Numbered from the stretch's first letter, positions 7,787-50,683 are shown. The stretch is 64,000 bases of DNA from an uncultured Gammaproteobacteria bacterium (GCA_964568925.1 CAZMSJ010000001.1:1115-65114); one strand, 5' to 3'. Notes: a model not told the origin generated them from the letters alone. Numbers and translations are program-made.

Positions 7787-8542
7787 ATGGACCAATCTAC
7801 GAACGCGGTATCACCGTTTCCTACAATAAACCCTCCGGCTCCAACAACTACGATCGTTTCTCAAAGTAAACCTGGTGGAGTAAATAAAAAGATGATTGGT
7901 GCCATCATTGGTATTGTTTTATTAGTTATTGGTCTTGTGAGTGGATTGTTTTTAGTAAGTCAAAGACAACAGTTTCAGCAAAAAGCATGGGACTGCAGTA
8001 AGTATCACTTTGTAATGACCAAAGAGGGACAAATTACAGCGGTAAACGACAGTACCAATAGTGAACCACTTCAACAGGCGGACGTTTATATAAACAATGC
8101 AAAGGCGACAACACTTGATGTACCAGCTCTAAACCCTGGACAATCAGCAGTGATTGGACAAGTAACCGTGCCAGTAAGTGGAACATTTAGTTGGGAAGTA
8201 CGAGGACTCGCTGACTGTTCTTCAACCGGAAGTTTCACGGCACAAGAAACAGCAAAGTGCGTTGACATCAAAGCATATGACGACAAGTGGACAGTTTTAT
8301 CTGCAACAGAACTTACAAACTTAAAGGCAGGAAGTGTTGTGAGGTTTGCAGTAACTGGAAGTACATCAACTGGTGCATTTTCAAAAGCTCGATTCAAAAT
8401 AAATGGTGTTGTTGGTACTGAAGTAACAACAAAGAGACCAGCATCAGAAGATTTCTATACTGAATATACCGTTCCAAAAGGAACAACAACATTTACGATT
8501 TCAGCTGAGCTGTTTCACAACACCTTTAATAAGTGGTTTTAA
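7787..8542 (+). CDS. N-terminally anchored secreted protein (251 aa)
   Basis: TM at residues ~35-58 then a beta-rich extracellular domain. Part of the surface-protein gene run. Confidence 0.4.
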   Translation: MDQSTNAVSPFPTINPPAPTTTIVSQSKPGGVNKKMIGAIIGIVLLVIGLVSGLFLVSQRQQFQQKAWDCSKYHFVMTKEGQITAVNDSTNSEPLQQADVYINNAKATTLDVPALNPGQSAVIGQVTVPVSGTFSWEVRGLADCSSTGSFTAQETAKCVDIKAYDDKWTVLSATELTNLKAGSVVRFAVTGSTSTGAFSKARFKINGVVGTEVTTKRPASEDFYTEYTVPKGTTTFTISAELFHNTFNKWF

Positions 8543-9913: not shown

Positions 9914-12370
9914 TTATCTCCAACTTGGAAGCCAGTAATACGATTCGTTTAACCAGAGAGGAACAGGGAGACCAGTTAATCGTGGGAAGAAATACAAGAA
10001 CACAACGCCAGCAATAATTAAGAATGGAAGTATGAGTTTTGGTGAACGAGATAGACAATAGGCAAGACTAATACAAAGGAACGGAACAGCTGGAAAATAA
10101 TGATACAAAAACATAATACGAGGAGAGAATGCCCATGGCATAAACAGACCTGCATAGGACGCAACTACGAGTGCCGCGGACTTACTTTTGTCCTTCAATG
10201 CATACCAGGACGTAAGAAAGATTGACGCCAATCCTCCCCAAAAGATAATCGGATTCCCCATCGCATAAATATTTGAAATAACACCATTATGTTCACCACT
10301 GGTGTAGAGCCAAATTGGTCGACCTAATACTGGCCAACTCCACCACGGAGAACTGAATGGATGAGTTGCAACAAGTCCGGTGTGATACCACCAAATTTGT
10401 TTCTGCATTCCCCAAAAAATATCGAACGTATGTCCCGAGGTAAACATAAAGAGATATGAACCAATGTAGATGGCAACGGGAATAATAAGGAACGAGAGAT
10501 ATGAAATTTTTATTCTTTTTTGTTTCAGAATAAAGGTGACAACAAGGATTGGTAGCAACCACAACGTCGTCCATTTTGCAGAAGCTGCTAAACCTAATGC
10601 GATTGAAGCAAACACAATTTTATTTTTCAAAAATAAAATAATTGTAAGAAGCAGGAAGAAGACGAGATAGATATCATTCATTCCAATACGACTTAAGACT
10701 AGGGCCAAACCATCGAGACTAAAGAGAAATGCAGCAAGTAACGCAACCTTTTCTTTCTTAAATAATTCCTTTGTTAGGGCATAGACCAAATACACACTCC
10801 CCGTTCCAAAAAGTGCAGCAGGCAAACGCCATCCAAAACTTGTTTCCCCTACCAAAACCATCGACATAACCATCGCAAGTTTTGCAAACGGTGGATGGGT
10901 CCATTCATATGCAAACCCTTCAGGACTTTCATTCCACCATTCCCACACCTTTATATTTCCATGCAACATTTGTCGAGCTGTGAAAGCATGGTATACCTCA
11001 TCAAAGTATTCATGTTCAGGAGATACCAGAGCAAATAAACGGGTAGACAACGCCCACACAAGAATCACTACAAGGAGAATTTTTGCCGTCTTGTTTGAAA
11101 TATCTTTCGCAAAAACTTTTGGCTCAGGGCTTGAAAGGAATGCTTTAACGTAGCCTACCAAACCGCCGACACGACTGGCTTTGATAAAGCCAATAAAAGA
11201 CTTTGTTTTTTCTTCTTGCAAGACAATCACAAGAGACATGATATTAAGCAAAATAAAAAAGAAAATGAGAAGCGGTGAATAGCTCTCTTTAAAATTCTCT
11301 GTAATCCAGATAAAGGCATAGTTCATATTTGCGATGTATACAAAAGACAACAGCACATAGGAGATTAAAAGCTCTGTGGAAATTGCAGCCAGTGGAGCAA
11401 GTGCCACTATTGCTGGAAGTAAATGTCTCTCATGCATACGAGTGAAGAATAAAAAGTTTGCGAGAAACAGGAGGACAAGCATTTTTATTGATGACAATTG
11501 TCGATCTCCCTTTTGTTTACGAAATTGTATGTAGCCAACAAGAGACACAAGACCAAACAGCAAGTAGCCCAAGTATTTATTGGTAAACAGGCTTGCTCCT
11601 TCTGGTTTCCAAAATCCAAAGAGCCCCCAAAAATTAAATGCGTTTACACTTCCATATGGATATTGGTTTAGGGTTACACCAAGTCGTTCAAAGATAAACG
11701 TGACGATGTTTTGTCCATTTGAAAATGGGAAAAACAAAAGGAGGAGAACCCCCGTTGCAACGAGGACAAAAACAATCTTTTGTTTAAAACTTTTTTGTAA
11801 AAAGAGGGGAAGAAGAACCAAACCAGTTAACGCCGCTTGTGGTTTTATTGCGGAACCAATTGAAAGAAAGATTGCTGAGAGAATTACACTTGATTCAAAA
11901 CTCACGACACTTGCTAAGGAAAACAGAACGGTCAAAATATCAACTTGTCCCCACAGAGTAGAGTTAGCAATCGTTGCTGGGTTAAACCATACAAGAACAG
12001 CACCAAACAATGCTTTGTCTGGATACTTTTTCTTCAAGATATAGTAGGTCGTTAAACCAGCAAATATGTCTGCCGTAATTGCTGGCAATTTATATAAAAC
12101 TACCGTTGGTATTCCGATTGACTCGATGCCAGACAGAAATGACAAGACATATAAATATCCAGGCAAGTAATCACTCCAACTGGTGTAAAACATTGAAAAG
12201 CCATTCGTGGTAAGTGAATGTGCCCATGCAATAAACGTATTTTGATCTAGTAGCAGGGTCCCAAACTGTGCAAGTATAATGCGAAGCATGAAGGCACTAA
12301 TGGCGAGCAAAAAGACCCGGAGGATAGTAGGTCCGCTTGTTGTTTTTTTCTTCTTTTTCATCATATTCAA
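9914..12370 (-). CDS. Large polytopic membrane glycosyltransferase, GT39/GT83 (PMT/ArnT)-like, apparently two fused membrane modules
   Basis: 818 aa with >20 predicted TM segments. YxxxA/DE-rich loops typical of lipid-linked sugar transferases. 5' end overlaps the divergent gene 12279..13478, so the exact start is uncertain. Confidence 0.45.
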   Translation of the reverse strand: MNMMKKKKKTTSGPTILRVFLLAISAFMLRIILAQFGTLLLDQNTFIAWAHSLTTNGFSMFYTSWSDYLPGYLYVLSFLSGIESIGIPTVVLYKLPAITADIFAGLTTYYILKKKYPDKALFGAVLVWFNPATIANSTLWGQVDILTVLFSLASVVSFESSVILSAIFLSIGSAIKPQAALTGLVLLPLFLQKSFKQKIVFVLVATGVLLLLFFPFSNGQNIVTFIFERLGVTLNQYPYGSVNAFNFWGLFGFWKPEGASLFTNKYLGYLLFGLVSLVGYIQFRKQKGDRQLSSIKMLVLLFLANFLFFTRMHERHLLPAIVALAPLAAISTELLISYVLLSFVYIANMNYAFIWITENFKESYSPLLIFFFILLNIMSLVIVLQEEKTKSFIGFIKASRVGGLVGYVKAFLSSPEPKVFAKDISNKTAKILLVVILVWALSTRLFALVSPEHEYFDEVYHAFTARQMLHGNIKVWEWWNESPEGFAYEWTHPPFAKLAMVMSMVLVGETSFGWRLPAALFGTGSVYLVYALTKELFKKEKVALLAAFLFSLDGLALVLSRIGMNDIYLVFFLLLTIILFLKNKIVFASIALGLAASAKWTTLWLLPILVVTFILKQKRIKISYLSFLIIPVAIYIGSYLFMFTSGHTFDIFWGMQKQIWWYHTGLVATHPFSSPWWSWPVLGRPIWLYTSGEHNGVISNIYAMGNPIIFWGGLASIFLTSWYALKDKSKSAALVVASYAGLFMPWAFSPRIMFLYHYFPAVPFLCISLAYCLSRSPKLILPFLIIAGVVFLYFFPRLTGLPVPLWLNESYYWLPSWR

Positions 12371-34814: not shown

Positions 34815-34890
34815 TGGAGGCCAGAGCGGGAGTCGAACCCGCGCATAACGGTTTTGCAGACCGTCGTGTTAACCACTTCACCATCTGGCC
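34815..34890 (-). tRNA. tRNA-Cys (GCA) with encoded CCA end
   Basis: Reverse complement folds as a 76-nt cloverleaf: GGCCAGA acceptor, anticodon stem ACGGT/ACCGT with loop CUGCAAA, T-arm GCGGGTTCGACTCCCGC, and a 3' TCCA. Confidence 0.8.
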
Positions 34891-39660: not shown

Positions 39661-39960
39661 TTATTTAACAATTGCCAATATATCATCAAACTTTACAAAC
39701 AAATAGTCATGTCCATCGATTTTAACTTCGTTTCCACCCCATTTTTTATAAATTACAACATCATCTACTTTCACAGGAGACTTTTTAACGGTACTGTTAT
39801 CAGTTGTTTCATCTGCACCAACAGCGAGTACTGTTCCTTTTTGTGGTTTGTCTGCTGACTTCTCTGGAAGATATATTCCTGAAGCTGTTTTTGTTTCAGA
39901 TTCTACTTGCTCAATAATCAAGTGACCTGGTGTTGGAGTTAGGTTTAATTTCTTTGCCAT
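39661..39960 (-). CDS. groS: Co-chaperonin GroES (Cpn10)
   Basis: MAKKLNLTPTPGHLIIEQVESETKTASGIYLPE... Confidence 0.85.
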   Translation of the reverse strand: MAKKLNLTPTPGHLIIEQVESETKTASGIYLPEKSADKPQKGTVLAVGADETTDNSTVKKSPVKVDDVVIYKKWGGNEVKIDGHDYLFVKFDDILAIVK

Positions 39961-39989
39961 AGCCTTGTGTTGGTATTATTACTACTTTG

Positions 39990-40016
39990 TTAGCATTCGT
40001 CAATCCCCATTGCTAA
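39990..40016. promoter_or_regulatory. CIRCE element (HrcA operator) upstream of groES
   Basis: TTAGCATTC-gtcaatccc-CATTGCTAA, 8/9 and 7/9 matches to TTAGCACTC-N9-GAGTGCTAA. A TTGACA-17-TTAGAAT-like promoter lies upstream on the minus strand. Confidence 0.55.
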
Positions 40017-40084
40017 TTTCTTTCGAAAACTATTCTAAGACATAAGAAATTATTATGTCAATATGTTTTTTAGGCACAAAAAAA

Positions 40085-40104
40085 GGAGAGGTGTTACCCT
40101 CTCC
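40085..40104 (-). terminator. Rho-independent terminator (minus strand) closing the island's left-hand gene
   Basis: ggagagg-tgtta-cctctcc. On the minus strand it is followed by TTTTTTTT. Confidence 0.55.
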
Positions 40105-40110
40105 ACAACA

Positions 40111-40485
40111 CTAGCCACCCCAACTAAGAAACAAGAATATTAAACCTGAGATTCCGAATTTAACCGGATCAACAATCCCAAGTGTTGGGCTAAATGCCCC
40201 AATCATGATGTGAATCAACGCACCATGAATAATGATTCCCAAACCAACAGCCAAGGTGACAAATACAACAATGCATCCACAGCCGAGGCCCGCTTCTGTG
40301 CGTGCAATAACGGCAACAATGAGCAAAACTACGCCAACGATGAAGATGATCACACCAACGGTGGATAATCCATCATAAATGCTGGCAACTTTATTCAGAA
40401 AGTCATACACGCCAGCGGCACTGCTCATGTTTGTGCCAGTACCAGCAACTGATATAAACGCAACAATCAGGATTATCAGAGCCAT
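40111..40485 (-). CDS. Small polytopic membrane protein (124 aa), own promoter and terminator
   Basis: Three to four TM segments. GC higher than the genome background. Confidence 0.4.
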   Translation of the reverse strand: MALIILIVAFISVAGTGTNMSSAAGVYDFLNKVASIYDGLSTVGVIIFIVGVVLLIVAVIARTEAGLGCGCIVVFVTLAVGLGIIIHGALIHIMIGAFSPTLGIVDPVKFGISGLIFLFLSWGG

Positions 40486-40522
40486 TTTTACCCTCTTCCT
40501 TAGGAAAAATTTGCTGCAGAGT

Positions 40523-40551
40523 ATAATAACACATTATTGTTATGGGGTCAA
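40523..40551 (-). promoter_or_regulatory. Putative promoter TTGACC-17-TATTAT (minus strand)
   Basis: Reverse complement reads ttgaccccataacaataatgtgttattat, ~35 nt upstream of the 124-aa gene. Confidence 0.4.
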
Positions 40552-40642
40552 ATAAGATGAAGTAATATCAAGGACATAGAACTCACCATTGTGGTAAGCG
40601 CGACTGCTCTTCACGCCCACCACAATAGTGAGAAAAATAGAA

Positions 40643-40667
40643 AGAGGCGGATGTTTAGTCCGCCTCT
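40643..40667 (-). terminator. Terminator of island module A
   Basis: agaggcgga-tgtttag-tccgcctct. The minus strand has a T-rich tail after it. Confidence 0.5.
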
Positions 40668-40675
40668 ACGTTAGT

Positions 40676-41251
40676 CTAGAGCGTTGCCTGTAGCACACCC
40701 ATAAACTTTTCAATCAATACCTTTGCCTCCGACGCAAACATCATCGTTGTGTTTGCATCACAGACAAACCCGTTTCCGTCACTGTCATAAGACCATGCCC
40801 ATTCAGGCACAGGCATATTGACAATCCGTTCCGGCAATTCTACTTCGATATTGTTACTGCCCAGTCCTTTAAAAAACCGGGGTTCAATTCTTCCTGATGA
40901 AGAAACAGCTCCTGAAAGGGACGGCTGGTAGACTAGCTTACCGTCTACAATTTTCTCGTACCAAATGACCTTGGCGGGTTTGTCAAAAATCTGACCTGCG
41001 TAGCGAGGAAAAGGTTTGCGCTCTTCCATAAACAGGCCGCGAGAAACGACTATTTCTTCAGTCTCTGGCCCCCATTTGGATAAAACCGCATATAATAGTC
41101 CACTTCGCATCTGGAAATGCGGGTGTTTACCAACATCTGTAATGAAGACCAAATCGGCGGCTTTCGCAGCACGCTGAACCTCTTCATATGTCAACAACTG
41201 TTCTGCAGGACGGTTCTCTTTTATGAAATCATTCAATTGTTTGCTGTACAT
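40676..41251 (-). CDS. Island protein, member of a local paralog family (191 aa)
   Basis: The C-terminal ~105 aa aligns with the 157-aa protein at 43878..44351 (LPERIVNMPVPEWAWSYDSDGNGFVCDANTTMMFASEAKVLIEKF vs FPEPVVTLPIPRWVKVWVHGDYGACDAGAESIQMFKSEAERLATEF). Confidence 0.45.
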   Translation of the reverse strand: MYSKQLNDFIKENRPAEQLLTYEEVQRAAKAADLVFITDVGKHPHFQMRSGLLYAVLSKWGPETEEIVVSRGLFMEERKPFPRYAGQIFDKPAKVIWYEKIVDGKLVYQPSLSGAVSSSGRIEPRFFKGLGSNNIEVELPERIVNMPVPEWAWSYDSDGNGFVCDANTTMMFASEAKVLIEKFMGVLQATL

Positions 41252-41382
41252 CTTGCTCTCCTGTTAGTTGGGTTAACTATTAATAAAATATAGATTACTT
41301 TTGATACTTAAAATATTTTTTTTAAATACGAACGGAAAATAAATATATGGTGACGGAAGTAGTTCCGCCACCATTTTTTTGA

Positions 41383-41874
41383 TTAGCTCGGAAGCCAAAA
41401 ACCTTCGCGACGAGCTTTCCGAACAAACGAAATAGCTAAGAACACATCGAGTGAGCGGCTGCTATCCACCCACTCACCTTTAAAGAGGTTCTCTAGTTTG
41501 AGGGTGAAATCGTCTCCCCCCTTATCAGATAGCGTCAACCGATATTCGGTCACGCCAATTGATTGGGGGAAACCCGCAACTTTGAAACTTACAGACTCAC
41601 CGGCCTGCAGTTTCATCGCAGGAATTACGGTGACAAGTGCTTCATCAAACGAAGCAAAGGCTTCAACTTTCCACCAATTGGTACTAATGGCTAGAAGATT
41701 CCCTTCCTCGTCCTCCAAGGCACGATACACGATAAAGTCAGGTGACGGACAGACGTTAAGTTCTTTTGCCTCCTCCAAAGCATCATTTAGCGAATTTGCT
41801 TTCAAATTCACTCGAACCTCATTGTCACCTAGTTCGATCCAGTTCCCAAAGATAACTCCAACATAGGACGGCAT
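41383..41874 (-). CDS. Island protein (163 aa), N-terminus resembles N-terminus of the 157-aa paralog
   Basis: MPSYVGVIFGNW vs MPKPAFVSLGNL, and ...KVAGFPQ...KGG vs VVAGFQVKENKGG. Weak similarity. RBS aaggagaagaatc identical to that of gene 42384..42623. Confidence 0.4.
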   Translation of the reverse strand: MPSYVGVIFGNWIELGDNEVRVNLKANSLNDALEEAKELNVCPSPDFIVYRALEDEEGNLLAISTNWWKVEAFASFDEALVTVIPAMKLQAGESVSFKVAGFPQSIGVTEYRLTLSDKGGDDFTLKLENLFKGEWVDSSRSLDVFLAISFVRKARREGFWLPS

Positions 41875-42010
41875 GATTCTTCTCCTTATTAATCAAAGCT
41901 CATGTAGCTTATAAATTGAAATGCCTCACACAAAAGATATGTTTATATCTTCTGGGTGAGGCACTTTTACTCTCACAACATTCAAACAAGATTTAAATGC
42001 TGAATTGAGT

Positions 42011-42029
42011 CCCCCACATGAAGTGGGGG
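42011..42029 (-). terminator. Conserved intra-operon hairpin (copy A)
   Basis: cccccac-atgaa-gtggggg with conserved flanks gaattgagt...tatttt.agacg shared with the copy at 44466. Confidence 0.45.
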
Positions 42030-42052
42030 CTATTTTAGACGAAGAGATCAGT

Positions 42053-42352
42053 CTACTTCCAACCTAAATCCCAGCCATACCCATTTGCTGAGTATCTAGG
42101 TTTGCGGACTGTGCCGTCCGAAAGGACAAAAATCGGAGCGTTTAAAGTAGAGTCCCACTCTACTTTCATTACTTCAAGCTCCGCAGGCTTCGTTTGCGCA
42201 CAAACCACCATTTGAACAGACTTGATTGCGGCCCAATCCTCCGCAGTTGGACCTGCGGTCGGATGCTGGTCAGCCGAAAGTGTTTCGGCAGCTTTAAAGG
42301 CAAATTCCAAAACCTTTAAAAGCGCATTATTATCAACAGTTATCTGGCCCAT
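42053..42352 (-). CDS. Island small protein (99 aa)
   Basis: ORF between the leader gene and the conserved hairpin. No family recognised. Confidence 0.4.
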   Translation of the reverse strand: MGQITVDNNALLKVLEFAFKAAETLSADQHPTAGPTAEDWAAIKSVQMVVCAQTKPAELEVMKVEWDSTLNAPIFVLSDGTVRKPRYSANGYGWDLGWK

Positions 42353-42383
42353 GATATCTCCTTATCCTATATGTAAAATTAAA

Positions 42384-42623
42384 CTAATTATCCAGCCATT
42401 CAAAAAATCTCATAGCGGGGTAAATGGCAAGAATCCCCCCAAAAAGTCCGATAAAATTGAGATTCATCGGTAAAAACATTACCGCAAATCCAATACCCAA
42501 CAAAATTGGGGATCCGATCGCGATAATGGAAATAAGAAATGCACGGGCAATCTCCCCTTCAGGGTGCCCAGTAGGTACAACTGGGAAAAACTTTTTCCAA
42601 ATTTGGCGAATTTTAATACTCAT
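42384..42623 (-). CDS. Island small membrane protein (79 aa), first gene after conserved leader A
   Basis: Two TM segments. Start preceded by aaggagaagaatc and the 14-bp palindrome. Confidence 0.4.
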   Translation of the reverse strand: MSIKIRQIWKKFFPVVPTGHPEGEIARAFLISIIAIGSPILLGIGFAVMFLPMNLNFIGLFGGILAIYPAMRFFEWLDN

Positions 42624-42643
42624 GATTCTTCTCCTTGTGAGTT

Positions 42644-42657
42644 GGGCTCATGTGCCC
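42644..42657 (-). promoter_or_regulatory. Conserved leader/operator motif A: near-palindrome GGGCACATGAGCCC ~10 nt upstream of RBS
   Basis: 12/14 self-complementary. The identical 14-mer is at 44908-44921 in the same position relative to another operon start. Confidence 0.45.
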
Positions 42658-42723
42658 ATATGGATTTAGATTTCTTTTGATATTTAAAAGATTTTTAAAT
42701 ATGAAAGAAAAGTAAAAATTGTA

Positions 42724-42745
42724 GGGGAAGGTTGGCTCCTTCCCC
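42724..42745 (-). terminator. Terminator after the 305-aa gene
   Basis: ggggaagg-ttggct-ccttcccc. On the minus strand it is followed by acaattttt. Confidence 0.5.
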
Positions 42746-42758
42746 CAAAAACAATGAA

Positions 42759-43676
42759 CTACTTAATCAGGTGTTTCGAAACAATCTCGACAACCTGCTC
42801 GATTTTCAGGGTGCTATTTATACCCTGAGGGCTGCCACCAATCGTCGGCGAACCACCCCAACCGGCTTCCAATGCCGAAAGCTCAGTAAAAGCTGCCTTT
42901 AGGTCCAGGTACCCAGCTTCATACTGGCTTACCGTGAACTTTGAGTGCTTAGGCCCACCTTGGAATGAAAACTCACGATTCAAGGCAACGACGACCGGCG
43001 CTAACGAATATCCCACCATCGTCGCTGCGCGGTGAGTCGAAACGACTACCGCAATCTTTCCTTCAGTGCGATGAGTGATCGCACCACTTTCAAGAGCGGC
43101 GATCATGTCGCTGCGCTCTTTATCAACCTGTGCGCGGTATGCGCAAGGTTCCTCGCCAGTCAAGAGCCATTTTTCCATCCAGGCGACACGATCTGCAATT
43201 GCGACTTTGAAGTCTGCAACCGCTGCGGCAATCGCCGCCAGTTCGCGTGTATCTGACGCGCTGGCGTTCTTCTCAGGCCACGGGTTTTCCGTAGTAGGCA
43301 GTGGCTTCACGCCTGCCCAATGGCCACGAGCAAACTTATCGGCAGCTGCTACTCGGAGAATCCGAGCGACGGCTGCGGCAGAAAACTGCCCATTGCGGGA
43401 ACGAATTTCCAGAAGGGCCATTGCTCCAATAGAATCCAGGTCGGCACGAACTGTGACCAGGGTCGATCCCTCAACCGGCAACTCTACTGTCAGGGCTGCT
43501 TCAATTGCAGCCTGATCTGCGTTTTGTCCGCTGTGCTGGGGGTCAAGGTTCCCCAAACAGCACTGCGCAGCCAAGGCAGGAATCGTTACCTCAACACCAA
43601 AGGTGTTGGGACCAACTAGCAAGGCATTTGCCTCAGTACCAACAGGACGGGGGTCAAGGATTCCAAATTTAAACAT
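42759..43676 (-). CDS. GC-rich uncharacterised protein (305 aa), Ala/Gly-rich, no TM
   Basis: Intact ORF. GC ~55% in sampled 60-mers against ~35% in the flanks. Motifs CCLGNLDPQH, VRADLDSIGAMALL, GWGGSP. No confident family assignment. Confidence 0.5.
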   Translation of the reverse strand: MFKFGILDPRPVGTEANALLVGPNTFGVEVTIPALAAQCCLGNLDPQHSGQNADQAAIEAALTVELPVEGSTLVTVRADLDSIGAMALLEIRSRNGQFSAAAVARILRVAAADKFARGHWAGVKPLPTTENPWPEKNASASDTRELAAIAAAVADFKVAIADRVAWMEKWLLTGEEPCAYRAQVDKERSDMIAALESGAITHRTEGKIAVVVSTHRAATMVGYSLAPVVVALNREFSFQGGPKHSKFTVSQYEAGYLDLKAAFTELSALEAGWGGSPTIGGSPQGINSTLKIEQVVEIVSKHLIK

Positions 43677-43877
43677 GATTTCTCCACTGCTCTTGGGGTT
43701 GAACTTTTGTCAACACATCCTTTTGGCAGCGCGGATAGGCGCCATCGATTGCGCCCTCCAAGCTGCCATCAACAGAGAAAGAACGGTTTGGAGAGAAAAA
43801 TGTTTCTATCAATCTTGAATTTCTTCAAAACTGATTTGAAACAGGGGAAGATAATGAACCTTCCCCTAATTTGTCTA

Positions 43878-44351
43878 CTAAATGAGTTTTTTAAGCTCAT
43901 TCGTGAACTCAGTTGCGAGACGCTCGGCCTCTGACTTAAACATTTGGATAGATTCGGCACCTGCATCGCAGGCACCGTAATCCCCGTGTACCCAAACTTT
44001 CACCCAACGAGGTATCGGTAGGGTTACGACAGGTTCTGGGAATGAAACTTCCACCGCAGGGTACCCTGCCGCTTCCAAGACTCCAGGGATAATGCCTGGG
44101 GCGTTATGGTAAAACCCCAATGTAGGGGTATAACGAACGACGCCCAACTGAGCATCGATTTCTGCATTCCACGAAAAAGTAATACCCGAGTCAACCTGCC
44201 AAGTCTCACCCCAAGTGGCGGTGATAGACAACCCTCCTTTATTTTCTTTAACCTGGAACCCCGCCACTACAGCAGCAATTTTCAAATTACCAAGAGAGAC
44301 AAATGCAGGCTTCGGCATGTTGTTCGAGACGAAAGATGATAGTGTAGACAT
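43878..44351 (-). CDS. Island protein, paralog family member (157 aa)
   Basis: See 40676..41251. The true start may be MPKP at 44318. Confidence 0.45.
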   Translation of the reverse strand: MSTLSSFVSNNMPKPAFVSLGNLKIAAVVAGFQVKENKGGLSITATWGETWQVDSGITFSWNAEIDAQLGVVRYTPTLGFYHNAPGIIPGVLEAAGYPAVEVSFPEPVVTLPIPRWVKVWVHGDYGACDAGAESIQMFKSEAERLATEFTNELKKLI

Positions 44352-44465
44352 TTAAGACCCCTTATTACTTGATTAAATACAAAATTTCAAAACAGATTGT
44401 GTTTACAATATTTATATTTAATGCTCTCACAAACTTGAAACTCGCATTTCAAATTTGAATTGAGT

Positions 44466-44484
44466 CCCCCACACAAGGTGGGGG
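44466..44484 (-). terminator. Conserved intra-operon hairpin (copy B)
   Basis: cccccac-acaag-gtggggg then atttttct on the plus strand. Flanks are conserved with copy A. Confidence 0.45.
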
Positions 44485-44518
44485 ATTTTTCTAGACGGAG
44501 CCTCAGATATAAGCCCTT

Positions 44519-44887
44519 TTATTGAGAAATATCAGGAGGAAGTGGATATCCTCCGTGCTCCTCCATTTTGCTATCAGGAGACGCCGCAATAGCAGCGTCA
44601 ATTCGTTCACGCGCATTTAAGCTGAGGGAGAGCTCACGCAGGTTCATCTTCTTGATGTATCTGCGGTCAACGAGAATATCATTGCGAAGAGCATCATCTG
44701 CCCAAACAATGATACCCGGCTCATCACTTGGCGTGCTTCCTTCAAGCATTGCATACACCAAAATTAACGCTGGCCGGCGCCCACCGACGCACTTTTTCTC
44801 AAGATCAAAAACTCGAACACCGCTTTCAGAGATCTGAACCTTGTAACGGCCAACCACAACTACCTGCTCGTTTGAATTCTGTGCCAT
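44519..44887 (-). CDS. Island small protein (122 aa), first gene after conserved leader B
   Basis: ORF. Start preceded by aaggagaaaaatc and the 14-bp palindrome. Confidence 0.4.
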   Translation of the reverse strand: MAQNSNEQVVVVGRYKVQISESGVRVFDLEKKCVGGRRPALILVYAMLEGSTPSDEPGIIVWADDALRNDILVDRRYIKKMNLRELSLSLNARERIDAAIAASPDSKMEEHGGYPLPPDISQ

Positions 44888-44907
44888 GATTTTTCTCCTT
44901 AATGAGT

Positions 44908-44921
44908 GGGCTCATGTGCCC
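44908..44921 (-). promoter_or_regulatory. Conserved leader/operator motif B (GGGCACATGAGCCC)
   Basis: Identical to the 14-mer at 42644. A putative -10 TATACT lies 7 nt upstream on the minus strand. Confidence 0.45.
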
Positions 44922-44932
44922 TAAATTTAGTA

Positions 44933-44974
44933 TATCTACCTAATAAACCACTAACATGGGCTAGTAGGTAGATA
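44933..44974. repeat. 10-bp perfect inverted repeat tatctaccta/taggtagata with 22-nt spacer overlapping the module-B promoter region
   Basis: Read directly from the sequence. Confidence 0.4.
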
Positions 44975-45359
44975 CACTGGACCACATAACTGAGCTTGAA
45001 ATAGGTATTTTGAGGCTAATAATGAAGTGAAACACACATATTGTGCTTAAAAACGAGCTTAGTTAGCCTCATTTTTGAGTTCAAGAGCAGTTATGTGGCT
45101 CAAAACCTCGCTTGTAGGCGGGTTTTTTATAATGAGCTTTTTATGTGAATGAGCAGAATCCACTTACCTCTTCTCTGACTTTCGATAACTTATAATACAC
45201 CCCAAACCTATATTTGTCAAGTGGCAATGACAAATAATACTAAACCCTATCTCACAAACTACCCATTATTTGTACTCAAAAACAGGGGTGGATATCTACA
45301 TTCTTTCGCGTATGTCAAAACGTGTTGACAATTATTTTTAAACAGACTATTCTATATAA

Positions 45360-46148
45360 ATGATTGATGAAACGCTCAAAAAGATTGGATTATCAAACGA
45401 AGAAACTGAAGTGTATCTCTCTCTTCTAAACTCCGGGACCGCCAATGCCTCACAAATTGCTAAGCAGACGTCTGTAAAAAGAACAAATGTCTACAATATT
45501 TGCGATAGTCTTATTACGAAAGGACTTGTAACAAAGAAGGCTCTTGCTCGAGGCATGGCATTTACTCCACTATCTCCAGATCACCTTTCGCCACTAGCAA
45601 TTCAACTTGAACAACGAATACAAAATGCAATGACAAGCTTGGAAAATATTCTACCTTCACTTAAAGAGCAATATAAATTAATTGATGAAAGACCAATCAT
45701 TACTGTCTATGAAGGAATTGAAGGTTTAAAGAAAATTTACAAAAACATATTGGAGGAAAAAGATGATATTCTTCTTCTCCGCTCATACTATGATGATAAA
45801 AGAATAGATCTTGATGCAATTGTAATGGCGCAAATTAAAAATCAAGTGAAAAGCGGTATACACGTTCGAACAATAACTCCATTGGAGAATGCAACAAAGG
45901 AAGTTTTTTTTAAGCACGATACCCCTAATTTAGTAAAACGACATATCATTCATTCAACACAATTTGAACTTCCCTCACAAATTATTGTCTATAAAAATAA
46001 AGTAGCAATGATTTCACTGAAAAAAGATATTGTAGCTACTCTCATTGATAACAAAGACATTAGTGACACATTTCGAATGCTCTTTGATTTTATGTGGGAG
46101 AAAACAGAGAAAGAACATGAAGAGATTGTGGCTGAATGGAAAGATTAA
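45360..46148 (+). CDS. TrmB-family transcriptional regulator
   Basis: N-terminal wHTH LGLSNEETEVYLSLLNSGTANASQIAKQTSVKRTNVYNICDSLITKGLV is the TrmB signature. C-terminal effector domain. Confidence 0.6.
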   Translation: MIDETLKKIGLSNEETEVYLSLLNSGTANASQIAKQTSVKRTNVYNICDSLITKGLVTKKALARGMAFTPLSPDHLSPLAIQLEQRIQNAMTSLENILPSLKEQYKLIDERPIITVYEGIEGLKKIYKNILEEKDDILLLRSYYDDKRIDLDAIVMAQIKNQVKSGIHVRTITPLENATKEVFFKHDTPNLVKRHIIHSTQFELPSQIIVYKNKVAMISLKKDIVATLIDNKDISDTFRMLFDFMWEKTEKEHEEIVAEWKD

Positions 46149-48196
46149 AGTGAAGTTTTCCATCCAAGGGCCTTCGGTATTTTTTGTGTAAATCGCTTAA
46201 ACACTTCTTTATTTGACAACCCTTTTTCAAATAAGCCTTGCGTATGGTGTGATAGTCCGAGCTGTTGAAGTTTGTTAACAAAATCAGAGCCCCGAGTTCC
46301 AATATCAAGTGACAAGCCGTATTCATCACAATCAAGTCGTAGATTCACTTTCTTTCCTTCAGCTGACGCAGTGACCCCTAATCGTGATTGACCAGTTTCA
46401 TACTCCTCATCAACTGCCTCTGGTCGAACCGTAAAGGTAACACGAGATGAATCAGAAAAAACATACCGTGCTGAAACACTTGCGTGTTTCTCATCTAATT
46501 TAATTCCAGGATCTTCATGAAATGAAACAACGCCTTCTCCAGAAAAGCCGTTTGAAGCTGAATCAAGTGCTTTTGTGTATAAAGACATCGTGTCGAGTGC
46601 TTCAGTTACTCCTTCTTGCCCAAATTCTGTTGCAAGTAAAATAAAATGTTGTGACCTATATGCAAACGATTGTTTCATTCTCTCCAAAATTATCCGGTCG
46701 GTGTTTGACATGAGTTTTGTTGATTGTAATTTTTCAGTAAGTGTATCTACAAACCGATTTGAAGCATTTCGAATCTTTGTGTACTGCTCAATAACATTTT
46801 TTTGAATATCAGGTGACTGATTTGTTAAATGTAAAACACGGATATCAAGCTCTCCATTTAGATAGGCATCTGCAAAAAGTTGAGCTGAGTCTGGTGCAGT
46901 TTCTAATAGTTCACGTGCTCTGGAATCACCTTTTTTATCTAAGTCCTGAACAAGTAGCATCGCACTTATCTGCTCTGCTGGACTCAAATCAGTAAAGGAA
47001 GATCGCCCTTCTGAACTTAAGCTCGTGCGAAAATCCATAAGTGTTTGAACATGGTCACCAATCATAATCCTATCTTTTCTGGCTCCGCCATGATCCACAA
47101 AAAATGAACCTAATTGTGAAGGGTTAATGACATCAAATGAACCTTGTGGAACAAGCGTAAATGAACGATCTTCTCCTTTGTCATAGGTTATATGGCAATT
47201 TCTCATATTTTCGCTACTTACATGAGCACGAAAAGCGCAACGAACTTCACCATTTACTGATACTGCATATTGATCCTGATAAATTTTAACGACATCTCCA
47301 TCTTTATATTGTGATCCAATAGAGAATCTACGATTCCCAATATTAATTCTCCCATCTTTTGAAACTTTCCGTACCTCAACATCACGATTATGCTCTGAAA
47401 AGTCTTCGACCGAAAGCAATTCATTGCTTTCCCAAAATGTACCTTTCTCTTCCATAAACTTCGTGGGATTATCCCAATTTACATTGTCTGTACCACCTCC
47501 ACGTATTCCTTGACGTACAAACCACGCACCGGATAGCCGCTGTCTGCCTGCCTCAGGATTTCCTGGAATTGCATCCACAAACAAAACTCCACCCTCATTA
47601 CGTCTTCCATTTGCTCTCGCATATACCTCATATGGAATGGCTATATCAAGAAGCGAGGTTTTAGCTGCAAAATCAGACTCAACTGTGGGGTGTCTCCTAT
47701 CCCAATCCATAGGTCGTTCCCACATGCGAATATAGTGATCATTTTTATGCTTAGCAAATGTTTCTGGGGAAAACCCTTCCTTTTCGCTTGGAACAAAAAA
47801 CAGATTTCTCTTCTCAGAGGGTATTGATCCATCAAGGGCTTTAACCGTAACGGGTATCCCTTTAAAGGTCCAATATAATATTTCTGAAGGAGAAAGTGCT
47901 GTCTCTGTATAGTTTATAAGCTCTTGTGCTGAAGTCTTTAGATATGTTTTACGCTTTACGAATGAACCTTCTTTGTTTGTAAAGCCGCGAGTCAGGTAAT
48001 CAAGGTGATTAATAACAACAGAGTCAATATTATTTTGGTCATCTCTTTTAACTTCCAAAAAGCCACGTTGTTGAAAATTGGAGAGCGTTACCTCTTGTAA
48101 TCGCTGTAGTTCGGGATCTTCTGGCCGAGGTATAATTTCTGTTTCAAGAGGCTTCCTTATTTCTGTTTCTATTCTTGGTATTTCGTTATTTTCCAT
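46145..48196 (-). CDS. Large cytoplasmic protein of unknown function (683 aa), last gene of SBP-NTase operon
   Basis: Intact ORF, no TM. 11-nt gap to the upstream gene. No recognisable catalytic motif. Confidence 0.5.
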   Translation of the reverse strand: MENNEIPRIETEIRKPLETEIIPRPEDPELQRLQEVTLSNFQQRGFLEVKRDDQNNIDSVVINHLDYLTRGFTNKEGSFVKRKTYLKTSAQELINYTETALSPSEILYWTFKGIPVTVKALDGSIPSEKRNLFFVPSEKEGFSPETFAKHKNDHYIRMWERPMDWDRRHPTVESDFAAKTSLLDIAIPYEVYARANGRRNEGGVLFVDAIPGNPEAGRQRLSGAWFVRQGIRGGGTDNVNWDNPTKFMEEKGTFWESNELLSVEDFSEHNRDVEVRKVSKDGRINIGNRRFSIGSQYKDGDVVKIYQDQYAVSVNGEVRCAFRAHVSSENMRNCHITYDKGEDRSFTLVPQGSFDVINPSQLGSFFVDHGGARKDRIMIGDHVQTLMDFRTSLSSEGRSSFTDLSPAEQISAMLLVQDLDKKGDSRARELLETAPDSAQLFADAYLNGELDIRVLHLTNQSPDIQKNVIEQYTKIRNASNRFVDTLTEKLQSTKLMSNTDRIILERMKQSFAYRSQHFILLATEFGQEGVTEALDTMSLYTKALDSASNGFSGEGVVSFHEDPGIKLDEKHASVSARYVFSDSSRVTFTVRPEAVDEEYETGQSRLGVTASAEGKKVNLRLDCDEYGLSLDIGTRGSDFVNKLQQLGLSHHTQGLFEKGLSNKEVFKRFTQKIPKALGWKTSL

Positions 48197-48205
48197 AGTT
48201 ACATT

Positions 48206-49006
48206 CTACACTGAAATAACCCCATTCTTCTCTAGGCGCTTCATAACGACATCACCCCAATCAAATGGATGGAAATAAGCAAAATGGAAAGAAAAGACCT
48301 CTCGTGTCACTTTGTGATTCATATAGATAACTTGAAAGTAATATGCCAATACATTCAGTGGTATCAATAAAAACAAAAGACTCTGAGATACAAATGCTTT
48401 TGCTCTTCTAATTGTAATGGCGTTTGGCCAGTACGATAAAACCCATTTATTAGAAGATAGCCACCTCTCAAATGTATTTTTTTTATTGATGAGTGGAATT
48501 ACTTGGGCAACCTCGTGGGCGGTATAGGCATTACGTGGCATACAAGGTAAAGCAAGAGACTTTTCATCTAGCCAAACATTCAAACAAATCCGATCTTTTT
48601 CATCTTTCATAGAGGCTCTCCTCATCTTTACGCCAGAAGCAAGTAACAATAGAAGTGAAATGGCTCGTGTAATCCACAGAGAATGGGCACTCGTTATGAT
48701 CATGAAATCAATATCACTGGTTTCTTTTGCATTCTCCATTGCAAGGGAACCAGTAACACCAACAAACAAAATTGTAGGAATGTGTGAGAGAATTTTTGCA
48801 GCTTTTCGTGCAATCAAGAGCTTCTGCTTTTGAATTGCATCAAGCTTGTTTTGTTCACTCTTACTTAAGGGGGAAAGGTGTGGAGTTACGCTACCAGTTC
48901 TAAGTGTCAACTTGTCTCCGGCAGTCCACCGATGCAAGTTTTTCTTCGACAAATGAAAAGAAAAAAATGAATGATAGATAATTGAGATGCTGTCAGAAGA
49001 TTTCAC
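48206..49006 (-). CDS. Pol-beta-superfamily nucleotidyltransferase
   Basis: GVTGSLAMENAKETSDIDFMII matches the hG[GS]x9-13Dh[DE]h minimal NTase motif. Confidence 0.55.
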   Translation of the reverse strand: MKSSDSISIIYHSFFSFHLSKKNLHRWTAGDKLTLRTGSVTPHLSPLSKSEQNKLDAIQKQKLLIARKAAKILSHIPTILFVGVTGSLAMENAKETSDIDFMIITSAHSLWITRAISLLLLLASGVKMRRASMKDEKDRICLNVWLDEKSLALPCMPRNAYTAHEVAQVIPLINKKNTFERWLSSNKWVLSYWPNAITIRRAKAFVSQSLLFLLIPLNVLAYYFQVIYMNHKVTREVFSFHFAYFHPFDWGDVVMKRLEKNGVISV

Positions 49007-49009
49007 ACC

Positions 49010-50683
49010 TTACTTCTTAACAGCTGGAGGAGGAGCAATCAAGCGGAACTGGACTAATACGCTTTGAACACCGGCTGAAACCGTTTCGAGTACTGATTTT
49101 CCATCAGAAGCTGATGAGCCATTCATTGCGTTTACCCCATCTTCAAAATACTTAGATAGTTGTGAATTAATTCCAGATTGACCATCAAATGTTCGACTAG
49201 CCAAGTACCAACTCTTTGCATTTGTAGCAGTTGCAATTACGCCGTTTACCAATGGATCTGAAGCAATAAGCTCCTGCATATCTCGTCGTGGGTAGAGAGC
49301 TCCAAATGCTCGTACTGCTGTGGCGTTCTTGTACATCTTGGTCAAAGACTCTTTCTCAGACAAGAACTTCAAGAATTTCCAAGCCTCAGTTGAAACTTTA
49401 CTCTGAGAGTTAACACCTTCTACCCAATAGGTTGCGTATGCAATATCAGGGTCCTCTGCTGTTGCCTTTGGAAGTTGTGGAACAGGAACAACACGGAACT
49501 TTAAGGTAGGATTTTGCTGTCTAATTTCATGTGCTCTCCATGAAGGTCCGATGTACATTGCAACTTTTCCTGAAGCAAAGGCAATAGTTGAAGTTGGGAG
49601 GGTGTCATTCCACACACCATATTGCTTAGAGAAAGCAGTGTAGAACTTTAATGCTTGAATTGCGTTCTCCCCTGTTGGGTTTTTTAGGTCCACGCCATTT
49701 TGAATCATCATTAAAGCCAAAATCTCTTGCCAGTTATCAACATTAGCTGTTGTTCCCAAAGAGACACCAGCTTGTTTAATAACCCCTGCTTCATCTTTAA
49801 CCGTCATCTGTTGTGCTAAATCACGAACGTCATACCAGGTAACTGGTGTTGTCTGTCCATAAGTTGTGAAAATATCTTCATTAATGTAGAGCCCTAATCC
49901 GTCATACATTAATGGAATACCAACAAAACCTGAACCTGCAGCAAGATCTGATACAACAACTGGATAGAAAGTCTGAGTAAACTCTTGTGCACTCATCACT
50001 GAAGACGGCATTGTTGAAAGTCGTGAAGAGAACATTGGTACCCAGGTATTGTGGAATCGGAAGATATCAGGTCCATCACCCTTAGCCAGTGCGTTTGTGA
50101 GTCGTTCTCGATAGTCTTCCTTTGACTGCTTTACATATTTAATTTCAACTCCTGGGTTCTTTGTCTGATATTCAGTAATAAGAGGAGTAATAATAGAATC
50201 ATCTTCCCAAAGGCTCCACCAGGTAATAGTGGTCTTTCCACCTGGTAACTTGACTCCTCCACTAATGGCCGCAAACACCCCAACAACACCAAGGACCAAA
50301 ACAAGTAAGAACACAATTATTGCGAGTAACTTCTTTGGGAATTTTCTGCTTGGTGCAATTACCGGTGGTGGTGGAACAGGACTAGCTGACTGAGGGAATG
50401 GAGAGGTCGGTTGTGAACTACTTTCTGTGTTCGCGTTTGCAAGCAAGTCAGCTGGTGGCATATTGCCTTCTAAAGAAACAGTTGGCTGTGATGGTTCTCC
50501 TGAAGGGGTCGGCTCAGGCATAGACATTGGTGATGGTGTGGCTGGCATTGGCTCAGCAGGAGTCGCTGACGTGGCTTCAGGTGTCATTGGTGTCATCGGA
50601 GTCATAGGCGCAGTTGGAGGCGCATCAAAAGACTGAGATACAAAAGGGGAACTAGATTGGTTGGCAGAATTCTTCGGATCCAT
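49010..50683 (-). CDS. ABC-transporter family-1 (sugar-type) substrate-binding protein with Pro/Thr/Met-rich N-terminal tract
   Basis: PMTPMTPMTPEATSATPAEP low-complexity tract, TM anchor, then ITWWSLWEDD...EYQTKNPGVEIKYV typical of cluster-B/family-1 SBPs. Confidence 0.6.
   Translation of the reverse strand: MDPKNSANQSSSPFVSQSFDAPPTAPMTPMTPMTPEATSATPAEPMPATPSPMSMPEPTPSGEPSQPTVSLEGNMPPADLLANANTESSSQPTSPFPQSASPVPPPPVIAPSRKFPKKLLAIIVFLLVLVLGVVGVFAAISGGVKLPGGKTTITWWSLWEDDSIITPLITEYQTKNPGVEIKYVKQSKEDYRERLTNALAKGDGPDIFRFHNTWVPMFSSRLSTMPSSVMSAQEFTQTFYPVVVSDLAAGSGFVGIPLMYDGLGLYINEDIFTTYGQTTPVTWYDVRDLAQQMTVKDEAGVIKQAGVSLGTTANVDNWQEILALMMIQNGVDLKNPTGENAIQALKFYTAFSKQYGVWNDTLPTSTIAFASGKVAMYIGPSWRAHEIRQQNPTLKFRVVPVPQLPKATAEDPDIAYATYWVEGVNSQSKVSTEAWKFLKFLSEKESLTKMYKNATAVRAFGALYPRRDMQELIASDPLVNGVIATATNAKSWYLASRTFDGQSGINSQLSKYFEDGVNAMNGSSASDGKSVLETVSAGVQSVLVQFRLIAPPPAVKK

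Follow-up and report, generated by a model that had tools for sequence, protein, structure and literature searches.

The DNA considered here is a stretch of 64,000 nucleotides (the "window") deposited as part of an uncultured Gammaproteobacteria bacterium (GCA_964568925.1 CAZMSJ010000001.1:1115-65114); its host genome is a Woesebacteria-like member of the Patescibacteria. Our subject is an island of genes at positions 40111-44940, between groESL and the divergent gene of a TrmB-family regulator, with a 305-aa protein (p305) as its conserved core. The original prediction had described an acquired accessory system of nine genes on one strand, laid out as two similarly organized modules, A and B. 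The single strand is borne out but the count is not: eight open reading frames (ORFs) are supported, all on the minus strand (p122, p157, p305, p79, p99, p163, p191, and p124), and a credible ninth was not found. Seven of the eight have orthologues in a near-identical strain, with ratios of nonsynonymous to synonymous divergence (dN/dS) of 0.00-0.28. The features of the island and of its border with the regulator are as follows.

45360-46148, plus strand: TrmB-family regulator, 262 aa, divergent from the island; winged helix-turn-helix (wHTH), long helix, PLD/Nuc-like C-terminal domain
45325-45353, plus strand: TrmB promoter-like site (consensus scan)
45313-45330, either strand: palindrome TGTCAAAACGTGTTGACA (TGTCA-N8-TGACA), overlapping the -35 box of the TrmB promoter; candidate operator
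45215-45232, either strand: second TGTCA-N8-TGACA palindrome, overlapping the -35 box of the main island promoter; candidate operator
45192-45220, minus strand: sigma-70-like promoter TTGACA-17-TATTAT of the first island transcript, 11 of 12 positions, a consensus match only
44888-45185, minus strand: structured 5' leader of about 300 nt before p122, with a terminator-like hairpin, a long-range 12-bp stem, and a hairpin of about 21 bp
44885-44921, minus strand: leader repeat copy B, GGGCACATGAGCCC, then Shine-Dalgarno AAGGAGAA, then ATG; 5' cassette boundary
44519-44887, minus strand: p122, acidic orphan; content of an exchangeable cassette, replaced in strain L063
44418-44494, minus strand: hp1-hp2, a CCCCCAC/GTGGGGG hairpin, CUCA, a 12-bp A/U-rich hairpin, and GUGAGAG; 3' cassette boundary
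43878-44351, minus strand: p157, of the p157/p191 family, with a conserved C-terminal domain of about 100 aa; paralogue of p191
43798-43857, minus strand: degenerate hp1-hp2-like element or terminator after p157 (covariance model R1, 23.4 bits, E 0.0055)
42759-43676, minus strand: p305 (305 aa), conserved core, DHH/DHHA1 fold; putative metal-dependent phosphodiesterase
42722-42747, minus strand: intrinsic terminator after p305 (scan)
42664-42719, minus strand: AT-rich, internally palindromic promoter-like repeat (repeats D4/D5, inverted repeat I5), preceding the module-A leader
42621-42657, minus strand: leader repeat copy A (repeat search)
42384-42623, minus strand: p79, small and basic, two predicted transmembrane segments
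42053-42352, minus strand: p99, acidic orphan
41964-42039, minus strand: second copy of hp1-hp2 (R1 94.3 bits; fold z = -4.1)
41920-41963, minus strand: long, nearly perfect hairpin before the p163 leader (fold z = -6.65)
41383-41874, minus strand: p163, acidic orphan, isoelectric point (pI) 4.6
41347-41374, minus strand: terminator after p163 (scan)
41288-41346, minus strand: second copy of the AT-rich promoter-like repeat, before p191
40676-41251, minus strand: p191, paralogue of p157
40643-40667, minus strand: terminator after p191 (scan)
40551-40523 and 40104-40085, minus strand: p124's own promoter and terminator signals
40111-40485, minus strand: p124, hydrophobic membrane protein at the edge of the region of raised third-codon-position GC content (GC3)

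By windowed GC the island is not uniform with the window (45.6% in 40111-44940 vs. 41.1% in the remainder, and 41.5% overall) and the low-GC flanks are confirmed (33-35% at 45.0-46.2 kb; groES 35%), yet the contrast is weaker than first claimed. The 47-55% originally attributed to the island was an overstatement: in 500-nt windows only about 42.5-43.75 kb, which is the p305 gene, exceeds 50% (0.53-0.57), and the rest of the island lies at 41-47%. GC3 is the stronger signal: the seven island ORFs that reach 90 aa have 0.43-0.52 (p79 has 0.40), 55 non-island ORFs of the window have 0.35 ± 0.05 (Mann-Whitney p = 3.7e-7 against the seven), and the neighboring groEL, groES, TrmB, and 683-aa genes have 0.21-0.27. 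None of the eight island ORFs had a match at the curated cut-off or at a meaningful E value in Pfam, PHROGs, or PADLOC, nor did their proteins match a PADLOC system model; NCBIfam, tested for p305, p124, p191, and p163, likewise gave no meaningful match, and the best chance-level family matches had E 0.017-0.018. The earlier statement that no gene could be assigned to a known family thus held for the sequence scans and failed at the level of the fold, where p305 belongs with DHH/DHHA1. The borders, as predicted, carry no integrase, transposase, or tRNA: the only tRNA in the window, a tRNA-Cys at 34815-34890, lies about 5 kb away, no mobility gene sits at either border, the island ORFs match no integrase or transposase family, and the immediate neighbors also lack a recombinase domain. 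Phage hallmark genes, integrases, PHROG matches, and similarity to phage DNA were not found in the island, and the wider surroundings consist of ordinary housekeeping genes (groESL, MurJ, UvrD, TsaD). Deviant composition, patchy distribution, and between-strain variability, the marks of a genomic island, are all present in this region.

The p305 family comprises more than 671 homologues, mostly 55-65% identical and none with a Pfam domain, of which 126 distinct variants were sampled. Those with a named source belong to Woesebacteria, Moranbacteria, and other Patescibacteria, identity remains at about 60% across classes of that group, and one cluster is 100% identical to p305. The protein is soluble, with no transmembrane segment, and its model shows a two-domain alpha/beta fold consisting of a DHH domain and a DHHA1 domain, whose closest structural neighbors include nanoRNases and PAP phosphatases (PggH, NrnA, 8a8k); TM1595, RecJ2, NrnA, GdpP, and Cdc45 also figure in the account of this fold, and a BFVD search placed phage DHH hydrolases on top. 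In an alignment of 41 family members, N43, D45, P46, Q47, H48, R77, D79, D81, D113, H215, and R216 are invariant, as is a glycine-rich C-terminal motif (GWGGS...GSPQG). DHH motif I (DxD after a strand, then G-S/A) is found as VRADLDSIGAM, directly after strand 72-75, with R77, D79, D81, and G84 invariant within it; in the DHHA1-like domain G272-W-G-G-S276 and G281-S-P-Q-G285 are invariant, with no His after the glycines, unlike the GGGH motif. Judged by its model, p305 is a structurally recognizable but sequence-orphan branch of the DHH/DHHA1 superfamily, an orphan because it lacks the DHH tripeptide and because the family could not be linked to PF01368 or PF02272 by any sequence method. The modeled fold argues for a metal-dependent phosphoesterase, in which the conserved D45-P-Q-H48 and H215-R216 may stand in for the tripeptide.

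Two enzymes of this fold class are known to remove messengers of type III CRISPR systems. NrN, a DHH-family phosphodiesterase of CorA-type type III-B loci, hydrolyses SAM-AMP (PMC10600005); p305 has no detectable sequence similarity to it, lacks the DHH tripeptide that NrN needs (D85/H86/H87), and differs in company, since the partner of alphaproteobacterial p305 homologues is a type III-D CARF-PD(D/E)xK nuclease rather than CorA, and the locus described here has TrmB and no CRISPR gene. MAD of Sulfolobus is, like p305, a DHH-DHHA1 protein and degrades the cyclic oligoadenylate cA4 (PMC8284326, PMC7841402), but MAD is membrane-associated and archaeal, whereas p305 is soluble and its family has no Pfam DHH match. 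Compared with the nanoRNases and cyclic-dinucleotide phosphodiesterases NrnA, PggH, and GdpP, p305 shows only 6-12% identity and a reduced or rearranged N-terminal domain (70 residues before the DxD, with an invariant NxDPQH), and its sporadic, mobile distribution contrasts with their place in the core genome.

A survey of one genome per species found the p305 family in 54 of 185,579, mostly Patescibacteria of several classes; the other carriers are Alphaproteobacteria (30-47% identity) and one Nesterenkonia contig. Its distribution does not track taxonomy, a Paceibacter homologue being 62% identical to p305 and another Woesebacteria one 56%. Host GC3 varies from 0.21 to 0.82, yet that of the homologues stays at about 0.55-0.7; among the 18 loci with sufficient flanking genes it is above the host value in 14 (Wilcoxon p = 0.0066), and it is below that value in the GC-rich ones. 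This pattern accords better with repeated transfer out of a pool of distinct composition than with local mutational bias; GC-biased gene conversion, also considered as a source of the high GC, is less likely than transfer because the GC3 of the homologues is lower than that of the host in high-GC hosts. The prediction of an acquired accessory locus, which we read as horizontally exchanged, is upheld by the foreign GC3, by the 54 of 185,579 species, and by sharp divergence between strains whose flanks are 98-100% identical. As to position, the island keeps the same place only within the same species (L063-L065), and all other variants of the family are flanked differently.

Homologues of p305 also occur in the context of phages and of CRISPR systems. 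Five IMG/VR contigs carry one: L071 is a bona fide phage contig with terminase and DnaB helicase, and in L069 and L070 the homologue lies amid arrays of small one-directional ORFs. In four alphaproteobacterial loci (L040, L041, L042, and L050) the homologue is embedded in a type III-D CRISPR-Cas system. L041 encodes, in order on one strand, a CARF-PD(D/E)xK protein (Card1/Can2-like), the p305 homologue, Cas10 (E 7e-71), Cas7, Cas5, and Cas7; in L040 and L042 the CARF nuclease is immediately upstream of the homologue, and in L050 the type III-D cas genes are on the opposite strand within about 8 kb, with Cas7 directly downstream and Cas10 farther away. Because homologues reside in type III-D loci and DHH enzymes are known to remove type III messengers, we propose that p305 degrades a nucleotide signal. 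The suggested link to defense is accordingly plausible as far as these type III-D loci, their CARF nucleases, and the phage contigs are concerned.

The original prediction had taken the TrmB gene as an outside border. It is instead the most conserved partner of the locus and its probable regulator: across the 126 distinct p305 variants TrmB is the sole widely recurrent neighbor, found in 36 distinct loci, nearly always divergent, 0.3-4 kb upstream, and with host-like GC3. Its wHTH belongs to PF01978 (55 bits vs. a cut-off of 25.6, E 7e-15) and its model (pLDDT 90) contains the PLD-like N-terminal subdomain of the effector-binding domain; the C-terminal sugar-binding subdomain is absent, the protein stopping after the PLD-like domain (262 aa), and NCBIfam TrmB equivalogs match residues 4-135 only. 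The modeled architecture is thus TrmBL2-like. A CARF sensor in the C-terminus was considered and set aside: the weak PADLOC CARF3/Csa3 matches fall mostly on the helix-turn-helix, and the modeled domain is PLD-like. The 64-kb window has exactly two copies of TGTCA-N8-TGACA, one overlapping each of the two -35 boxes. Near the TrmB start (-30 to +400) the palindrome was found in 14 of 28 distinct TrmB-linked loci (16 matches, 1.33/kb), as against one match in about 358 kb elsewhere (0.003/kb), an enrichment of about 470-fold at TrmB starts. These positions make it a candidate operator for TrmB autoregulation and for control of the first island transcript.

The regulator resembles TrmBL2 of the Thermococcales in combining a wHTH, a coiled helix, and a PLD-like domain with no sugar-binding subdomain, and in having a palindromic target (here a candidate one). 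It differs from Thermococcales TrmB and TrmBL2 in being bacterial (Patescibacteria) and in its putative target genes, which are not those of sugar metabolism. The TGM motif of the Thermococcales is TATCAC-N5-GTGATA, and the candidate operator TGTCA-N8-TGACA differs from it. A full-text literature search for 'TrmB' together with 'Patescibacteria' gave no paper. Archaeal TrmB proteins regulate sugar ABC transporters, and an operon at 46145-50683 (minus strand), convergent on trmB and overlapping its 3' end by 4 nt, encodes a sugar-type ABC solute-binding protein (SBP_bac_1/8, 49010-50683), a 266-aa protein, and an orphan 683-aa protein; no TGTCA-N8-TGACA lies near it. At the TrmB promoter-like site (region 45325-45362) about 7 nt separate the end of the -10 box from the ATG at 45360, so that the trmB mRNA may be leaderless.

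Comparison with L063, L064, and L065, which represent a near-identical Woesebacteria strain, revealed how unevenly this stretch diverges. Flanking proteins are 98-100% identical to those of L063, with synonymous divergence (dS) of 0.02-0.16. Within the island, divergence rises toward TrmB, with protein identities of 100% for p124, 99% for p191, 93% for p163, 84% for p99, 90% for p79, 87% for p305, and 81% for p157. dS reaches 0.66 in p305 and 0.42 in p157 at dN/dS of 0.12-0.28 (p305 0.12, p79 0.17, p99 0.24). By this high dS with low dN/dS the ORFs are genuine genes kept under purifying selection, with alleles that predate the genomic background, which is the signature of imported alleles. At the nucleotide level the usual pattern is inverted, the coding cores being 73-78% identical and the intergenic regulatory stretches 95-98%.

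In place of p122, L063 has an unrelated 126-aa ORF and an extra unit consisting of a leader, an ORF of about 165 aa, and a hairpin; homology ends exactly at the ATG of the leader and resumes in hp1-hp2. In a third allele, L155, p305 is 79% identical and a very divergent p157-family gene lies upstream; after that gene comes an hp1 whose stem is entirely different, and then the conserved CUCAA...hp2...GUGAGAG. A series of cassettes, each made of leader, ORF, and hairpin, describes the layout better than an operon duplication does, and of the proposed two modules with paralogous proteins there remain one paralogous pair and the regulatory DNA in common. Like integron cassettes, these are promoter-proximal, unrelated small ORFs, each bounded by a conserved structured element, whose content differs between close strains. 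An integron was rejected: no IntI adjoins the array, and hp1-hp2 is, by inspection, without the attC cores R''/R' (RYYYAAC / GTTRRRY). Nor does the island have an attI, each unit has instead a 5' leader with its own ribosome-binding site, and exchange would here proceed by homologous recombination. A second likeness is to phage morons and acr-aca loci, in the small, acidic, fast-turnover orphans with their own promoters and terminators and deviant GC, and in the adjoining conserved HTH regulator with a (candidate) operator overlapping a promoter. This locus is, however, chromosomal, set between housekeeping genes with no surrounding prophage, its regulator is TrmB rather than Aca, and no anti-CRISPR homologue was detected in it.

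The non-coding boundaries are themselves distinctive. The leader of about 300 nt before p122 has a minimum free energy of -92 kcal/mol (z = -7.0 vs. shuffles) and is 98% identical in L063. The predicted conserved leader with a 14-bp palindrome is indeed a repeat, copies A and B being 81% identical and GGGCACATGAGCCC occurring exactly twice in 64 kb, but the palindrome is imperfect and matches at 12 of 14 positions. The predicted cccccac/gtggggg hairpin was recovered in full: CCCCCAC-N5-GTGGGGG has 2 matches vs. 0 in shuffles and sits in a 45-nt repeat that is 80% identical. A further repeat, the AT-rich promoter-like one at 41288-41346 and 42664-42719, had gone unnoticed in the prediction. Two adjacent hairpins fold in all copies of hp1-hp2 (z -3.4 to -4.7), the element at 44418-44494 giving z = -4.7 and 88.7 bits with covariance model R1; matches of the model are confined to the copies after p122 and p99, a weak one after p157, and those of the sister strain. 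In an alignment of five sequences, none of the 12 pairs of hp2 is broken and four are changed on both sides. Because hp1-hp2 lacks a U-tract, we read it not as a terminator but, from its predicted fold, as a probable RNA-stabilizing or RNA-processing punctuation element. The terminators claimed at 40643-40667 and after p305 (42722-42747) were both found by the scan, and p124, which follows module A, is indeed hydrophobic and has a promoter-like site at 40551-40523, as expected of a separately promoted membrane gene.

A search for the leader pattern in JGI metagenomes gave 0 matches and confident hp1-hp2 copies were found in this species alone, so that leader and hp1-hp2 are lineage-specific. 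Known RNA families were also considered and dismissed: Rfam at E <= 1 over 39900-45500 returned only chance miRNA matches, and at the gathering threshold over the whole window only the tRNA-Cys, so that the leader, hp1-hp2, and the 300-nt 5' untranslated region fall outside the known RNA families. Around the p305 homologue, other lineages carry repeated intergenic elements of their own. In L009 a 115-nt direct repeat (7846-7960 and 8964-9078) lies on both sides of the homologue; the downstream copy is hammerhead type III-like, with an intact CUGAUGA...GAAAC (35.2 bits against a gathering threshold of 48.5, E 4.8e-5), and the upstream copy is a much weaker hammerhead match (E 0.1). In L001 a twister-P1-like element (10506-10584; 50.5 bits, E 1.9e-8, below gathering) comes right after the small-gene cluster that follows the homologue. 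In L001, 6800-7300 also resembles a structured RNA with many GAAA tetraloops, for which Rfam gave no match.

Some smaller observations concern these RNAs. The 16-nt sequence AAGGAGAAGAATCATG, which spans Shine-Dalgarno and start codon, is identical for p163 (41872-41887) and p79 (42621-42636), the pair forming repeat D3, and has one mismatch for p122 (44885-44900). The CAUGAG of the leader palindrome may base-pair with the CUCA that lies downstream, or else compete with the start region, a hint of control at the level of translation. On the plus strand a promoter-like site at 44996-45023 lies upstream of a hairpin at 45107-45122 (region 44996-45130) whose T-tail is better on that strand (TTTTTT) than on the minus strand; the two could specify an antisense small RNA of about 100 nt opposite the 5' leader of the island, or the hairpin could be a bidirectional terminator. 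Another hairpin, with a 20-bp stem, occupies 40584-40630 between the p191 terminator and the p124 promoter.

The soluble small island proteins are acidic (pI 4.6-5.5) and have no signal peptides, and no toxin domain was found in the island. Paralogy between the two modules, which had been predicted more broadly, is real for p157 and p191 (33% identity over 89 aa, E 5e-9) and undetectable for every other pair of island proteins. In a word-indexed search of 5.8 billion proteins p191 had only its same-species orthologue, but the view of it as a pure orphan was revised to one of a divergent, unannotated family when an exhaustive profile search with p157 and p191 brought out 101 distant relatives (representatives at E <= 1e-3), all of them devoid of Pfam domains; matches to giant Ig-repeat proteins are probably spurious. 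Members of the family are directly beside p305 homologues in L011, L052, and L155, which makes it a second, weaker recurring component of these loci. Except for this family, tblastn and phmmer showed no homology of the small genes between lineages.

We tentatively favor, with a confidence falling somewhat short of even, the reading that this is a TrmB-controlled, horizontally exchanged accessory island that combines p305, as a nucleotide-signal phosphodiesterase, with recombining orphan cassettes. The divergent TrmB-family regulator would anchor the island and probably control it. The most likely job of p305 would be to hydrolyse a nucleotide signal, putatively cyclic oligoadenylate, SAM-AMP, or a related linear product, and it would act as an off-switch or as a counter-measure in the conflict between phage and host. 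Around it, mostly acidic, lineage-specific genes would be organized in units of a leader (palindrome and strong Shine-Dalgarno), one or more ORFs, and hp1-hp2, the conserved non-coding ends of which would serve as homology arms by which imported DNA replaces or adds cassettes. The analysis shows the fold of p305 and its conserved acidic and histidine residues, its ties to CRISPR loci, phages, and TrmB, operator-like palindromes over both promoters, a cassette swap at exact element boundaries, and raised dS combined with purifying selection; the activity and substrate of p305, repression by TrmB, recombination as the mechanism of exchange, and any roles of the small proteins are what we infer.

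A number of points weigh against this account. The Asp-His-His tripeptide (motif III) is absent from p305, so that catalysis is not assured; PF01368 and PF02272 have no match in 41 family members even at E <= 10, a profile search of the PDB with the family returned nothing, and a sequence-level link to DHH proteins, sought by hhalign against RecJ, was rejected at a probability of 0.3. The CRISPR association consists of the four alphaproteobacterial loci only, whose proteins are 38-47% identical to p305, and within 8 kb of the Patescibacteria p305 loci, as in the examined parts of the window, there is no cas10, CARF, or cyclase gene. TrmB is missing from roughly half of the p305 loci, and the candidate operator is a motif that includes a -35-like half-site. 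Recombination is suggested by three alleles only, with no recombinase present, and the small proteins cannot be assigned a function from their sequences. The weakest links of the model are the activity and substrate of p305, the source of its signal in the host, and the roles of the small proteins. A bolder form of it, which we consider doubtful, is an integrase-free, integron-like cassette-exchange locus in Patescibacteria, with a TrmB repressor as anchor, around a new DHH-like class of messenger-degrading phosphodiesterases. Small genes would then be captured and swapped between structured punctuation elements (the leader hairpin and hp1-hp2 here, hammerhead and twister ribozymes elsewhere) that double as RNA-processing insulators and recombination arms, and the degraded messenger would be related to immunity or symbiosis.

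Housekeeping nucleotide salvage is another way to explain p305, as an NrnA/Orn-like nanoRNase or pAp phosphatase recycling oligonucleotides in a nucleotide-scavenging organism, with unrelated lineage-specific genes as small neighbors and a GC content raised by amino-acid composition or expression level. That its nearest structures include nanoRNases and PAP phosphatases (PggH, NrnA, 8a8k), that it is under purifying selection (dN/dS 0.12), that it is about 60% identical across Patescibacteria classes, and that groESL, MurJ, UvrD, and TsaD surround it are all consistent with such a role. We nevertheless think it unlikely, given a family confined to 54 of 185,579 species genomes, a p305 dS that is 4-5 times the flank dS between near-identical strains, a GC3 independent of that of the host, homologues in phages and type III-D CRISPR loci, and the many metagenome contigs that break just past the homologue. 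It is also improbable that the island is a decaying remnant of an integrated phage or other mobile element, a moron-like or anti-defense cluster in which p305 and the acidic orphans are leftover early genes with no present function for the host. The promoter-like and terminator elements per gene, the foreign composition, the acidic orphans among the soluble small proteins, the viral contigs with homologues in arrays of small one-directional ORFs, and the hammerhead- and twister-like elements flanking homologues in L009 and L001 would suit it, but every ORF is intact and under purifying selection, the island has no phage hallmark, integrase, or PHROG match, and the recurrence of the TrmB linkage and of a conserved operator motif across Patescibacteria classes argues for a maintained, regulated locus.

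The remaining proposal of the original prediction, that the two operons are duplicates encoding a toxin and its immunity protein or a secreted effector and chaperone, now seems very improbable. Small, variable, paired genes that differ between strains and two small membrane proteins (p79 and p124) are what one would look for in such a system; against it, Pfam, PADLOC, and PHROGs (and NCBIfam for four proteins) gave no toxin, immunity, secretion, or chaperone domain, the soluble proteins carry no signal peptide, there is a single paralogous pair, and the conserved core is an enzyme of a nucleotide phosphoesterase fold.

Of the parts of the favored TrmB-controlled island, DHH signal-degrading enzymes, regulator-linked accessory or anti-defense loci, and cassette arrays are known kinds; the new elements would be a sequence-orphan enzyme family with a candidate TrmB operator and a cassette architecture in Patescibacteria. 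If the reading is true, a sizeable Pfam-less family (>670 sequences, 126 variants), DHH/DHHA1-like by structure only and tied to type III-D CRISPR, phages, and Patescibacteria, would be a candidate new second-messenger-degrading enzyme, and TrmB with TGTCA-N8-TGACA would provide a testable regulator-operator pair for Patescibacteria. It would also mean cassette-like gene turnover in the reduced genomes of these organisms, with non-coding boundaries better conserved than the genes they enclose, and the self-cleaving-ribozyme-like elements that recur around the same gene in other lineages would hint at a biological context for such ribozymes.

The neighborhoods of the more distant p305 homologues offered several further observations. 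In L066 an rve_3 integrase-core fragment (10140-10472) lies directly downstream of the homologue, whose GC3 is 0.65 in a host of 0.21. Several independent metagenome contigs (L073, L076-L081) stop 100-250 bp past the homologue, which suggests a repeat or population-level heterogeneity downstream. A set of genes for an Aminotran_5 protein (cysteine-desulfurase-like), a 390-aa protein, a radical-SAM protein, and an adenylate-kinase-like protein recurs beside distant homologues in metagenome-assembled genomes of Patescibacteria and low-GC Alphaproteobacteria: directly downstream in L034 (9134-12526) and L055 (4593-8698), farther downstream in L058 (10674-14759), which also encodes a Zeta-toxin-domain protein, and upstream in L029 (2512-5702), whose copy lacks the Aminotran_5 gene. 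In L004 (5508-6467, 9211-9441; no TrmB), the homologue lies between a gene for a PemK-toxin/RNase H fusion, from which three small orphan genes separate it, and csrA.

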